Shown here piece by piece: positions 39,582 through 43,018 of a stretch of DNA of 64,000 nucleotides. How positions within the stretch are numbered: position 1 is the first letter of the stretch; each line of letters starts with the position of its first letter. The stretch covers positions 732,562 to 796,561 of the forward strand of contig OY970216.1 in assembly GCA_963713955.1 (NCBI GenBank), in the 5' to 3' direction. Under the pieces are notes generated by a model. It had not been told where the DNA came from. It ran no database searches and saw only the letters and a list, made by a program, of their open reading frames with translations. The position numbers and the translations under genes were made by a program. This DNA is from an uncultured bacterium (GTDB lineage: Bacteria > Patescibacteriota > Minisyncoccia > UBA6257 > GWB1-50-10).

Positions 39582-39797
39582 GATTTCGAATTAACCTTGC
39601 CGACCTCAAAGACAAAAAGAACAACCCTCTTGCGAGTTGCTCTTTTTGCTTATCCCTACCTTCAATTTTAGGAACTGTTGCGCGACAATCAATGGAACTT
39701 GTCCCCAAAATCTAAGGCCTCCCGCTCTCAATATGGCTTCCCGCTCTCCATAAATCTGTGGATAACCCGCGTCCCAGCTGAATCAGGTATAATTGAA

Positions 39798-41543
39798 ATG
39801 ATGGCTTTCAACAACTCAATCGCAGAAATTTTCTACGGCATAGCCGAATACTTGGATATGGACGGTGTTCCTTTCAAGCCGCGCGCGTACGAAAAAGCCG
39901 CTGAGACAATCGAGGGTTTAGAAGAAGACGTTTCAGAAACATATCGGAGGGGCGGCTTGAAAGCCCTGGAAGAAATTCCCGGCGTCGGTGTATCCATGGC
40001 TGAGAAAATAGAAGAATTTATCAAAACCGGCAAGGTGAAATACTACGAGGATTTGAAAAAAAAGATACCCGTCGATGTGAGCGGCCTCCGGAAAGTCGAG
40101 GGGCTGGGCCCGCACTCGATAAAAAAGCTCTACGAAAAGTTGAAAATCAGAAGCGTGGAAGATTTGAAAAAAACTGCACAGGAAGGAAAGATAAGAAACG
40201 TGGAAGGCTTCGGCACGAAAAGCGAGGAGAAGATACTGAAAAGTCTCGAGTTCTTGAGTAAATCGTCCGGCAGATTCATCCTCGGGTTCGTTATGCCGGA
40301 AATACGCGAGATAGAGGCACGCATAAAGAGGCTGAACGGCGTCGAGAAGGCAACCGTCGCCGGATCCGTGCGGAGGATGAAGGAAACAATCGGCGATGCC
40401 GATATCCTGGTCGTTTCCCGAAAGCCGGGCCCGATCATGGATTACTTCGTGAAAATGCCCGAGGTAGTGAAGATAACCGCTGAGGGTGAAACGAAATCGG
40501 CGATCAAATTGAAATCCGGGTTGAACGTTGACCTGCGCATCGTTCCCGCCGCATCGTACGGGGCCGCTCTAAATTATTTCACCGGATCAAAAGCTCATAA
40601 CATCGCACTCCGGGAAATCGCCATAAAGAAAGGTATGAAACTCAATGAGTACGGGCTTTTTAAGATCAGAGGTAAAAAAGAGACCATGGTGGCCGGCGGG
40701 ACTGAAGAGGAACTATATAAAGCGCTGGGGTTAAGATACATAGAGCCGGAGATGCGCGAGAATACCGGAGAAATCGAACTCGCGCGGGAAAACAGACTAC
40801 CGAAGCTCATCGGCTACCGCGACCTTCGAGGCGACCTCCAAGTACAAACAAATTGGACCGACGGCTCGGATTCCATAGAAACCATGGCTCGCGCGGCTGC
40901 CAAAGCGGGCCTCGAGTATATCGTGATCACCGACCATACAAAACACCTCGCGATGACCCACGGTTTGGATGAGAAAAAAGTCCTGAAGCAGATGGCTGAA
41001 ATAGACCGGGTCAACAAAAAGCTTAAATCCGACGGCGTCCGAATGACCGTCTTGAAAGGCAGCGAGTGCGACGTCCTGAAAGACGGCACGCTGGACCTGC
41101 CGGACTCGATCCTGTCGAAGCTCGACGTCGTCGGTGCCGGCGTTCACTCTTATTTCAATCTGCCGCGCAAGGAACAAACCGAGAGGATAAAGAGAGCTAT
41201 GCGGAACAAAAACGTGGACGTTTTGTTCCACCCGACAGGCAGGGTTATACAAAAACGAGACGCGTACGACGTCGACATGGACGAGATCATTAAAGAGGCT
41301 AAAGAAACCGGCACGGTACTCGAGATAGACGCATTGCCGGAACGCGCCGATCTCAAGGACGAATACATAAGGAAATGCGTCGCCCGGGGAGTCAAAATGT
41401 CCATAGATTCCGACGCCCATTCCCCGCTCCATTTCCAGATTCTGGAATACGGCATCGCCCAGGCGAGGCGCGGATTCGCCGAGAAGAAAAACATCGTAAA
41501 CGCATGGCCGCTCGAGAGAATGAGAAGGTTGCTCAAGAACTGA
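39798..41543 (+). CDS. DNA polymerase X family protein (Pol beta-like + PHP domain)
   Basis: Tandem HhH motifs and a C-terminal PHP histidine cluster (HTKHLAMTHG...HSYFN...HPTGR...DSDAHS). Start at the MM codon 7 nt downstream of GGTATAAT. Confidence 0.85.
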   Translation: MMAFNNSIAEIFYGIAEYLDMDGVPFKPRAYEKAAETIEGLEEDVSETYRRGGLKALEEIPGVGVSMAEKIEEFIKTGKVKYYEDLKKKIPVDVSGLRKVEGLGPHSIKKLYEKLKIRSVEDLKKTAQEGKIRNVEGFGTKSEEKILKSLEFLSKSSGRFILGFVMPEIREIEARIKRLNGVEKATVAGSVRRMKETIGDADILVVSRKPGPIMDYFVKMPEVVKITAEGETKSAIKLKSGLNVDLRIVPAASYGAALNYFTGSKAHNIALREIAIKKGMKLNEYGLFKIRGKKETMVAGGTEEELYKALGLRYIEPEMRENTGEIELARENRLPKLIGYRDLRGDLQVQTNWTDGSDSIETMARAAAKAGLEYIVITDHTKHLAMTHGLDEKKVLKQMAEIDRVNKKLKSDGVRMTVLKGSECDVLKDGTLDLPDSILSKLDVVGAGVHSYFNLPRKEQTERIKRAMRNKNVDVLFHPTGRVIQKRDAYDVDMDEIIKEAKETGTVLEIDALPERADLKDEYIRKCVARGVKMSIDSDAHSPLHFQILEYGIAQARRGFAEKKNIVNAWPLERMRRLLKN

Positions 41544-41563
41544 AGAAGAGGTGGTTCCTCGGT

Positions 41564-42172
41564 ATGACGCTCGGCGCAATCCTGATCGTCAGCTTTATTC
41601 TTTTCAAAACGAACGTCCTCGGTCATTTTCTGAGAATCGCCGCACTGACTTTGAAAACCGACGAATTGGTGTACGAAAGCGGGAAAGTATCAAAAACCAC
41701 AAGTTCTACCAGTAACGGCAACAAAACCGTCGAAAGCAAGCCCCAGCCGCCGACAAAGGTGGTCATAAGCGAATTATTTCTCGGAAACGGTACCGCTCCT
41801 TCCTTCCTCGAACTCTACAACCCTGCGGGGAATCCGACAGATCTTACCAACTTTTCCATAAGAAGAAAAACGAAATCGGGCAGTGAAACTACGTTTGTTT
41901 CCGCGAAAAGATTCGAGGACGTCGTGCTCGGCGCCCACGATTATCTCCTCATCGTCCAAGCCAGCTCAACAATGCAAGGAGATATTTACTGGCCCAAATC
42001 CTACAGCCTGCCGAAAGCCGATTCGTCACTATCCCTCTACGATCCGGACGGGAAGAAAATAGATGAGATCTCGTGGAGTGTAATGCCTCCCAGTGCAAGC
42101 CTCGCGAGAATTTCGTGGGAAAGCAACGAGTTCGGAATACTGGAGAACCCGACACCACAGGGCAGTTTTTAA
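41564..42172 (+). CDS. membrane-anchored lamin-tail-domain protein
   Basis: TM followed by ISELFLGNGTAPSFLELYNPAGNPTDLTNFSI (LTD). Confidence 0.55.
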   Translation: MTLGAILIVSFILFKTNVLGHFLRIAALTLKTDELVYESGKVSKTTSSTSNGNKTVESKPQPPTKVVISELFLGNGTAPSFLELYNPAGNPTDLTNFSIRRKTKSGSETTFVSAKRFEDVVLGAHDYLLIVQASSTMQGDIYWPKSYSLPKADSSLSLYDPDGKKIDEISWSVMPPSASLARISWESNEFGILENPTPQGSF

Positions 42173-42933
42173 TCGAAACTCAAAAGTCCAGAACCGATTT
42201 GCAGAAATACCAAAAGAAGGATAAGACCGTCTATTGACACCTCCTTCATCTTGTTGATGTTTTTTTCTCTTTCTTTTACCCATTCCGCAATGGATTTTTT
42301 GTAACTCTCTTCCCCGCCGAAGAGATCAAGGAGAAATTCCCGATGCGTCACCGAAGGAAAGTTGCGCCAGCCACAGTAGTCCATATGGCTGCTCCACCGG
42401 TACGAATTGAGAAATTTAATGTCGTCGCGATCGCCGTCCTTCAAGTCGAGAGGGTTTGCGTGTATGTAATGCGGTACGTGGAGGAGATGACGATTACTCT
42501 TCACCTGAACTGCCTTGAACCTACCCTGGAAAAGAACACCGCTCCTCCCATACTTTTGGTTAAAGTAAAGCGCATAGCCCGCTCCCATTTTCTGCATAAA
42601 TTGAGTAATGCTGTTTTCCTTTCTCTGCCTCAAGAGCAAATGAAAATGGTTGGGCATGAGCGTGAAAGAAAGTACGTCAACCAGTATTTTCCTTTTCTTC
42701 CTTGGTTTCTCGCATTCGCGATCGCGGAACTCTATTCCCGCCACCCTTACGGGGTTCTTCATAAATTCATAAGTCATGTTTCGGACGTCGTCCTCATCAT
42801 TAAACTCAAAAAGATCATGGACGAATCTTAAGTAATCCTTTTCATCCATGAATATCTTCCGCTTGTCGGCTCCGCGGTTGTAAACGTGATAGATCCCATT
42901 CTCTTCTAAAACCCCCCTTCTCATACTTCTCAT
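42169..42933 (-). CDS. REP-associated tyrosine transposase (IS200/Y1 HUH family)
   Basis: HVYNRG..., HUH motif LMPNHFHLLL, catalytic Tyr motif YIHANPL. Confidence 0.8.
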   Translation of the reverse strand: MRSMRRGVLEENGIYHVYNRGADKRKIFMDEKDYLRFVHDLFEFNDEDDVRNMTYEFMKNPVRVAGIEFRDRECEKPRKKRKILVDVLSFTLMPNHFHLLLRQRKENSITQFMQKMGAGYALYFNQKYGRSGVLFQGRFKAVQVKSNRHLLHVPHYIHANPLDLKDGDRDDIKFLNSYRWSSHMDYCGWRNFPSVTHREFLLDLFGGEESYKKSIAEWVKEREKNINKMKEVSIDGLILLLVFLQIGSGLLSFD

Positions 42934-43018
42934 TTTAGCATTCTGGGGTTATCCACAGATTTATGGAGAGCGGGAGGCCAGATATTTAGGGGATAAACTC
43001 TATTGTAAAATGGAGAAA

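Follow-up and report, generated by a model that had tools for sequence, protein, structure and literature searches.

Three adjacent genes in a 64-kb stretch (the window) of an 804,691-bp contig (OY970216.1) from an uncultured bacterium encode a PolX repair polymerase, a small lamin-tail-domain (LTD) protein and a Y1 nuclease resembling the REP-associated tyrosine transposases (RAYTs; REP, repetitive extragenic palindrome). Just upstream of PolX and of the Y1 gene lie inverted copies of a short repeat that contains a DnaA box, and this element is the subject of our analysis. The window comes from a genome of Patescibacteria type: its ribosomal RNA genes are unlinked, and homologues are annotated as Patescibacteria. 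The three genes are:

39798..41543, plus strand: PolX DNA polymerase/3'-5' exonuclease with a PHP domain (NF006375 and Pfam)
41564..42172, plus strand: small membrane-anchored LTD protein of 202 amino acids (aa; PF00932, 4e-13)
42169..42924, minus strand: RAYT-like Y1 (HUH) nuclease gene (PF01797), its 3' end overlapping the LTD gene by 4 nt

An earlier reading of this DNA (the original prediction) had named the trio PolX, LTD protein and RAYT (Y1 transposase), and profile matches confirm all three identities. PolX scores 501 bits against NF006375 (cutoff 426; 4e-150) and carries the Pfam domains HHH_8, DNA_pol_B_thumb and PHP. A GAGGTGG ribosome-binding site stands 8 nt upstream of the LTD gene (41564-42172), which is predicted to be co-transcribed with PolX as one operon. 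The same prediction had offered a divergent unit as one explanation of the layout; PolX-LTD and Y1 are convergent.

The Y1 protein matches PF01797 with 36.2 bits (cutoff 23), its HUH motif being HFH at residues 96-98 and its tyrosine lying in YIHANP at residue 156; both are invariant in 20 homologues, and the Y1 family is highly conserved (50-67% identity). Against the TnpAREP model NF047646 (REP_Tyr_transpos) it scores 40.8 bits (E = 1.9e-10), under the curated cutoff of 80, and against the IS200 model NF033573 only 13.3 bits, far under its TnpAREP score. Sequence searches of the PDB with the family profile and with the single protein gave no useful match, making a fold search necessary, and the top Foldseek match was 4ER8_A, E. 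coli TnpAREP with its REP hairpin (E = 1.4e-4, TM-score (target) 0.58). We class the gene as RAYT-like, its fold being closest to TnpAREP 4ER8, and as a domesticated transposase-like gene. A C-terminal helix-turn-helix (HTH) or Bac_DnaA_C domain is absent, a Pfam scan at E <= 10 having returned only Y1_Tnp; at the C-terminus, a hydrophobic tail comes after a YRWSS region that is conserved. Among the aligned proteins, this tail is present in the 248-257-aa Y1 forms of this clade and not in shorter family members.

An inverted repeat upstream of PolX-LTD and Y1

A repeat search recovered two inverted arms at 39731-39768 and 42946-42983, 38 nt long, 95% complementary and 3177 nt apart, which contain a 30-nt exact core. 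The 29-mer TCCCGCTCTCCATAAATCTGTGGATAACC occurs exactly twice in the window, on opposite strands, against 0 expected (100 shuffles), confirming the pair of inverted 33-bp elements reported originally; their DnaA-box-like motif is equally secure, since a 9-mer in each arm (39757-39765 on the plus strand, 42949-42957 on the minus strand) matches TTATCCACA at 9/9 positions. What had been described as a half copy at 39716-39729 is present and belongs to a tandem duplication with a 19-nt unit (39713-39731 and 39732-39750, 84% alike; direct repeat D5), and fainter inverted similarity reaches outward to about 39690 and 43005 (repeat I2: 44 nt, 80%). The parts of the two elements and their promoters are listed below, with comparison loci given by their L numbers:

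39699..39707, plus strand: outer weak DnaA-like box TTGTCCCCA on the PolX side; the aligned sequence in L011, L096 and L003 is TTATCCCCA
39716..39729, plus strand: first (half) copy of the GC-rich core, GGCCTCCCGCTCTC, within D5
39735..39749, plus strand: GC-rich core GGCTTCCCGCTCTCC of the PolX-side element (alignment A3)
39757..39766, plus strand: perfect DnaA box TGTGGATAA with flanking C, ending 22 nt before the -10 box
39788..39793, plus strand: TATAAT, predicted -10 box for PolX-LTD, 7 nt ahead of the conserved ATG (39801)
42932..42940, minus strand: extended -10 box TGCTAAAAT of the Y1 gene, read from sequence, 7 nt before the ATG at 42924
42948..42957, minus strand: perfect DnaA box TGTGGATAA with C, 11 nt upstream of the -10 box and overlapping the -35 position
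42965..42979, minus strand: GC-rich core GGCCTCCCGCTCTCC of the Y1-side element (repeat search, alignment)
42989..42997, minus strand: outer weak DnaA-like box TTTATCCCC of the Y1-side element (repeat I2, alignment)

Because the -10 boxes stand 7 nt before the ATGs of both genes, leaderless starts are plausible for PolX-LTD on the plus strand and for Y1 on the minus strand, a reading that the sequence fairly supports. On the PolX side, the string GGTATAATTGAA.T.ATG is invariant across four genomes, and a second in-frame ATG lies at 39798. The Y1 gene probably starts at 42924 and not at 42933, since the former is the start of the database protein P0001 and of all homologues; the 254-aa open reading frame (ORF) has no exact-protein match in the database, where the gene begins at the second ATG. 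DNA folding found no hairpin in either window arm (z = 0.63 and -0.19), and a hairpin reading of these arms was rejected on that basis.

The intergenic region between PolX and the divergent 174-aa gene holds further features. At 39614-39647 a hairpin resembling a terminator, AAAAAGAACAAC..GTTGCTCTTTTT, has T-runs on either strand and is followed by a third DnaA-like box, TTATCCCTA, at 39650-39658, both nearly invariant in four genomes. Given a promoter-like site on the minus strand (39692-39665), the hairpin would be a leader or attenuator of the 174-aa gene, or a tiny RNA.

The element and its genes in related genomes

Our comparison set comprised about 90 Patescibacteria loci, among which six close relatives (L003, L007, L011, L095, L096 and L097), with Y1 proteins 60-65% identical to that of the window, carry the PolX-LTD-Y1 trio and L010 and L013 are more distant relatives. 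Homologous elements occupy both positions in L003, L011 and L096 (alignments A2 and A3), where the parts follow the order outer box TTRTCCCCWAAAT, core GGCCYCCCGCTCTCC, complementary hairpin arm, then AAATCTGTGGATAAC. The outer weak box has the consensus TTRTCCCC and the inner one is the perfect DnaA box TGTGGATAAC; the two boxes are convergent, with the GC-rich core between them. As DNA, the elements of L003 and L010 fold into strong hairpins (z = -3.6 and -4.7, respectively). Both window copies have lost the identical hairpin arm, the PolX-side core being the left arm of the relatives' hairpin, whose right arm is deleted in the window. The core occurs in tandem in L003 and L011 as well, and its sequence GGCCYCCCGCTCTCC is invariant in eight copies from four genomes, unpaired ones included. 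Two copies in one genome resemble each other more closely than orthologous copies do (identity 0.96 for the L011 pair versus 0.69-0.78 for orthologues), a pattern suggestive of gene conversion or re-copying.

Relatives carry this element ahead of LTD, ahead of Y1 and at the SOD/SpoU intergenic region. In L010 and L013, LTD and Y1 stand in tandem with an element upstream of each in direct orientation; L010 has a further pair in its SOD/SpoU intergenic region, and L003 (at about 16420) carries a full element with hairpin between the giant LTD gene and SpoU. Orthologous to the latter is a third family member in the window:

34235..34249, plus strand: family member without a core, AATTCTGTGGATAAC, in the gap from the giant LTD gene to SpoU, orthologous to the full element of L003

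On the minus strand, this site adjoins a promoter-like TTGACA-17-TAGTTT. The direct copies in L010 and L013, together with those in the SOD/SpoU and giant-gene/SpoU gaps, indicate that orientation follows the neighbouring gene, and the inverted layout in the window arises because two convergent units each carry the same element just upstream of the -10 box. One element in L010 comprises the palindrome TATCGAGGCC.GGCCTCGATA followed by ATTTTGGGGATAAC, and thereby bridges the common palindrome type described below and the type found in the window.

The core-less member lies within a 577-nt geneless gap on the minus strand (33701-34277) between the giant LTD gene and SpoU, where L010 has a SOD gene. 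Two GC-rich stretches in the gap each end in a hairpin and T-run (at about 33945 and 33715) and may be unannotated small RNAs; searches of 33701-34277 gave no Rfam match and no SOD remnant.

The original prediction had raised the possibility that the 3.2-kb segment is a composite mobile segment carrying a repair polymerase with the Y1 transposase. Presence/absence comparison found the trio in all six close relatives with no polymorphism of position or presence. A right flank consisting of the 174-aa gene and the giant LTD gene is common to four of the six, and the LTD-Y1 neighbourhood with both left and right flanks is common to the window, L003, L010, L011 and L096. The Y1 gene shows conserved synteny and vertical inheritance, with one tandem duplicate, in L013. 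No direct repeat that could represent a target duplication is shared by the flanks outside 39690 and 43005, and no GC anomaly is seen across 38-44 kb (0.500, 0.507 and 0.514). A composite transposon made of PolX, LTD and Y1 is not supported, and the tempting idea of a repair polymerase travelling on a Y1 transposon is dropped as unsupported.

A related possibility is a TIRtron-like mobile unit, in which the arms would be terminal inverted repeats (TIRs) and Y1 would move or invert the 3.2-kb cassette. Inverted arms do bracket the Y1 gene, as in TIRtrons (PMC3733652), L095 has the trio with different flanks on both sides, and each relative has a different neighbour on the Y1 side, the change coming directly at the element, which may reflect a role in rearrangement. 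In addition, the contigs of L001, L096 and L097 end at the element, L001 exactly at both arms. These ends are explained by the 30-nt exact repeat, which equals k-1 of a k=31 assembly graph, and excision as the cause of the L001 ends was rejected in favour of such a graph break. Against mobility stand the constancy of the trio and its right flank, the absence of target duplication and GC anomaly, arms that are unable to fold, elements at positions that bracket nothing, and retention of the trio without the element on both sides in L095 and on the PolX side in L097. We consider a mobile unit very unlikely.

Other features of the trio recur across its genomes. In every genome with the trio, the 3' ends of Y1 and LTD, which converge, share 4 to 38 nt (window 42169-42172; L003:8735-8759; L007:8710-8747), and with no terminator space between them the two transcripts must be partly mutually antisense. 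LTD genes lie beside Y1 in all arrangements of the clade, whether convergent, tandem upstream or as a giant neighbour of 1500-1650 aa (window 34278-39053 on the minus strand and 41564-42172 on the plus strand; L010:7273-7938; L013:5327-6001), hinting that LTD proteins and the Y1 locus are functionally connected. In L002 (1435-2549), a Logan assembly of the same species, gene calling splits PolX into two ORFs (166 and 205 aa), as a result of either a frameshift in that allele or faulty assembly.

DnaA boxes and Y1-associated palindromes

The perfect box TGTGGATAA occurs five times in the window, where 0.32 occurrences are expected, and counts of the element in this genome cover the 64-kb window only. 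Likewise, 1.06 Mb of Patescibacteria loci from relatives contain 47 copies of TTATCCACA, compared to a median of 8 for permuted 9-mers, with the flank consensus TGTGGATAACT; 33 of the 47 are intergenic although intergenic sequence makes up 15%. Among these 33, ten fall in Y1 flanks (3.6 expected, P = 0.002). Each of the five window boxes lies 0-25 nt from -35/-10-like hexamers, and the core is missing at three of the five sites, two of which are the following:

3603..3628, minus strand: hairpin (TCCGCC..GGCGGA) followed directly by TGTGGATAAC, 14 nt before TTGACA
11448..11467, plus strand: head-to-head box pair TGTGGATAA-ct-TTCTCCACA, 20 nt upstream of the TATAAT of a pilin-like gene (minus strand)

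The original prediction was to fall if the element proved to be a generic promoter upstream of unrelated genes. The box part does stand at unrelated promoters in the window (3603, 11448 and 34240) and across Patescibacteria (33 of 47 boxes intergenic), which counts in part against the prediction, but the link to the Y1 gene is still real. A generic core-promoter element was rejected, with box-to--10 distances of 10-31 nt and only five sites in 64 kb.

A single metagenome scan with the pattern TCCCCWAAAT-N20-50-AAATCTGKGGATAA, informative on boxes and uninformative on copy number, recovered only L096 again and four oriC-like clusters of DnaA boxes. These clusters contain no homologue of the window proteins, and L098, the one that is annotated, has neighbours of proteobacterial type; the strings TTATCCCCAAAAT and AAATCTGTGGATAA are common to the element and to such oriC-like clusters of unrelated bacteria. 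Could the boxes then act on replication control instead of transcription, as a secondary DnaA-titrating or origin-like cluster? Besides the similar strings, the three DnaA-like boxes (39650, 39699 and 39757) within the 216-nt PolX/174-aa intergenic region, conserved in four genomes, would fit this idea. However, cumulative GC skew is monotonic across the window and there are only 2-3 boxes per site, placed exactly at promoters, making titration extremely improbable. A replication origin here is ruled out by the monotonic fall of the skew and by the maximum of three boxes per site (<=3), and a motif search found no dnaA gene in the window or the comparison loci.

A survey of Y1 homologues in 80 Patescibacteria species loci (L015-L094) showed that the Y1 gene is almost always preceded by a perfect palindrome that is specific to the genome. 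Its centre lies about 28 nt before the Y1 ATG, overlapping the promoter, and it often reads TTGAAC, 17 nt before TATAAT. For palindrome statistics, 63 of the 80 loci were analysable: the same palindrome is found on both sides of Y1 in 37/63, the second copy just after the stop codon, and within the Y1 ORF, in frame and without disrupting it, in 32/63. These in-frame copies occupy two hypervariable loops, at about nt 155-230 and 450-495 of the ORF, that is, before HUH (about codon 55-75) and after Tyr (about codon 160-170), and the peptide PMEVQPRY, for example, is the palindrome in translation. Some loci hold 4-8 copies in 5-14 kb; examples are L026:1687-2470, L028:940-6330 and L018:6878-7670. 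The window Y1 gene has no internal copy. This phylum-wide organisation is REPtron-like, and literature searches on RAYT and REPIN found no description of such systems or of in-frame palindromes in Patescibacteria.

In several unrelated Patescibacteria lineages, a perfect DnaA box lies 1-30 nt from a Y1 palindrome (L037:1722-1780 and 5478-5536; L010:12500-12600; L019:412; L031:8274; L058:9949 and 10681; L071:9908). Box and palindrome together form the repeated unit in L037 and L010, and in L010 one box sits between two palindromes, as in a bacterial interspersed mosaic element (BIME).

These palindromes raise the alternative that the window element is purely a REP/TIR-type repeat, a Y1 substrate or its relic with no regulatory role, whose promoter position is incidental and whose box is a tag read by Y1 in the manner of GTAG. 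The genome-specific palindromes on both sides of Y1, their multiple and in-frame copies, the box-plus-palindrome unit, the concerted evolution of copies within a genome and precedents in the literature (PMC3733652, PMC6006769) all speak for it. Yet the window copies have no hairpin potential, the 5' GT[AG]G tag is absent, the box is identical to the universal DnaA box including the flanking C, and it stands at many palindrome-free promoters, only 8/47 boxes lying within 30 nt of a palindrome. We regard a pure repeat as a rather unlikely explanation.

Several observations concern the surroundings of the other box sites and the ribosomal RNA genes. Downstream of the hairpin, DnaA box and TTGACA promoter-like site at 3628-3580 is a region of about 1 kb between tRNA genes (2530-3600, minus strand) without a convincing ORF. 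It gives a weak match to a tmRNA 3' end at 2953-2970 (E = 0.005) and a sub-threshold tRNA-like match at 3109-3216, and may be a divergent tmRNA or another RNA gene. ARAGORN calls a 'tRNA-Arg' at 3638-3719 that overlaps a tRNA-Thr and lacks Rfam support. The 16S rRNA gene is followed, after about 320 nt, by a free-standing LAGLIDADG endonuclease ORF (12531-12959, minus strand), and stands about 11.7 kb from the 23S gene. The 5' part of the latter (1-1560, minus strand) spans 1560 nt for 1225 model positions and therefore carries an insertion of about 335 nt.

A promoter-proximal reading and its relation to known systems

We favour, with moderate confidence, the interpretation that the arms are not transposon ends but paralogous copies of a lineage-specific composite promoter-proximal element that acts in cis on transcription, with DnaA as its most likely reader. 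The core would descend from the palindromic, REP/TIR-like repeat that accompanies RAYT-like Y1 genes across Patescibacteria, and would be the present or former recognition hairpin of the Y1 enzyme. DnaA, or a protein of the same specificity, would bind the boxes at about -24 to -43 and so tie transcription of the PolX operon and the Y1 nuclease to replication status. Copies within a genome would be kept alike by gene conversion or re-copying; in this genome the hairpin, the form that a Y1 enzyme uses as substrate, is gone, and the part still conserved is the double-stranded -24 to -66 region of two putatively leaderless promoters. Co-regulation of PolX-LTD and Y1 is plausible because both arms are promoter-proximal alike and because the same element stands before LTD, Y1 and SOD/SpoU in relatives. 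The system is most likely a REPtron/TIRtron-like variant whose repeats now serve as DnaA-box promoter elements.

Several findings weigh against this interpretation. DnaA box and -10 box are separated by 22 nt on the PolX side and by 11 nt on the Y1 side. Orthologous copies differ in the third base of the box (T, G or C), a position generally regarded as essential for E. coli DnaA. The core is kept even where it is unpaired, which suggests a sequence-specific reader, and the changing Y1-side flank leaves room for the role in rearrangement noted above. In a further alternative, the element would be an operator read by another transcription factor through GGCCYCCCGCTCTCC and/or GGATAAC, controlling a small stress/repair regulon of PolX, LTD, Y1, SOD and SpoU. 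The invariant core, the variable third base and the functionally suggestive genes downstream argue for such a factor; no candidate is encoded nearby, however, three of the window's five box sites lack the core, and the box matches the DnaA consensus perfectly. This alternative is unlikely in our estimation.

Extending the DnaA interpretation, DnaA boxes and Y1 palindromes might form one module throughout the phylum, in which DnaA bound beside the palindrome would open the duplex locally and the domesticated Y1 nuclease would act on the extruded hairpin, setting the transcription of neighbours such as PolX, with the window reduced to a DnaA-dependent promoter switch. This is a decidedly improbable scenario; if true, it would give a REP/RAYT-type system a mechanistic tie to the replication initiator.

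The genomes of Patescibacteria are tiny and encode few regulators that can be recognised, and hardly any of their cis-elements have been defined by experiment. Under the favoured interpretation, if true, the locus would provide a testable promoter element, a DnaA-box pair with a conserved core, through which the replication initiator is linked with a repair polymerase and a domesticated Y1 nuclease, and the REP/RAYT and TIRtron concept would extend to Patescibacteria. Beyond the locus itself, a RAYT-like system that spans the phylum comes into view and may merit a study of its own.

DnaA-regulated promoters and non-origin box clusters are familiar from the E. coli dnaA and nrdAB promoters and datA, and from the DnaA-box clusters of B. 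subtilis. The present sites resemble them in having a perfect TTATCCACA with flanking G/C and paired weaker boxes at or near -35 and away from the origin; they differ in that the boxes lie inside a repeat common to a Y1 system, the third base is variable and binding is a prediction. With IS200/IS605 elements the locus shares the Y1/HUH transposase fold, but the match to NF033573 is only about 13 bits, the ends of those elements are subterminal hairpins on one strand and not inverted repeats, and no multicopy, mobile behaviour is seen here.

Among the closest known systems are REPtrons, in which a RAYT (TnpAREP) gene is flanked by REPs or BIMEs (E. coli yafM; 4ER8; PMC3333891). Like these, the locus has a single Y1/HUH nuclease with HUH and Tyr intact, whose best structural match is 4ER8 and whose gene lies in conserved synteny, and across the phylum genome-specific palindromes occur on both sides of Y1 and elsewhere. 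By contrast, the window Y1 stays under the REP_Tyr_transpos cutoff (40.8 versus 80), and its repeats are not hairpins, carry DnaA boxes and overlap core promoters; the second copy lies 3.2 kb away, beyond two extra genes, and copy number appears low (two full copies and three box-only sites in the window). The 5' GT[AG]G tetranucleotide found at the foot of RAYT REP hairpins (PMC6006769) is missing too, neither GTAG nor GTGG adjoining the core of the window copies or occurring in the listed Patescibacteria palindromes. In RAYT subclass 2.4 (Bertels group 4), REPs lie in frame within tnpAREP, between HUH and Tyr (PMC6006769), and the in-frame cognate palindromes in 32/63 Patescibacteria loci recall this arrangement; these insertions, however, fall before HUH or after Tyr, the palindromes are non-canonical, and the window Y1 has none.

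TIRtrons consist of RAYT-like genes (TIRYTs) flanked by TIRs (Di Nocera et al. 2013, PMC3733652), some families of which are moderately repeated, and TIRYTs form subclass 2.1 of Quentin et al. 2018 (PMC6006769), with a C-terminal HTH/Bac_DnaA_C domain. In the window, somewhat as in TIRtrons, inverted non-hairpin repeats lie around a RAYT-like gene, but they enclose PolX and LTD besides Y1, and the element also occurs at sites that bracket nothing. The outer boxes, read inward as GGGGACAA (7/8) and GGGGATAA (6/8), approach the TIR motif GGGGWSAS (PMC3733652), neither being exact. The window Y1 does not have the C-terminal domain of subclass 2.1. The locus is one of REPtron/TIRtron-like repeats, novel in carrying DnaA boxes at promoters.

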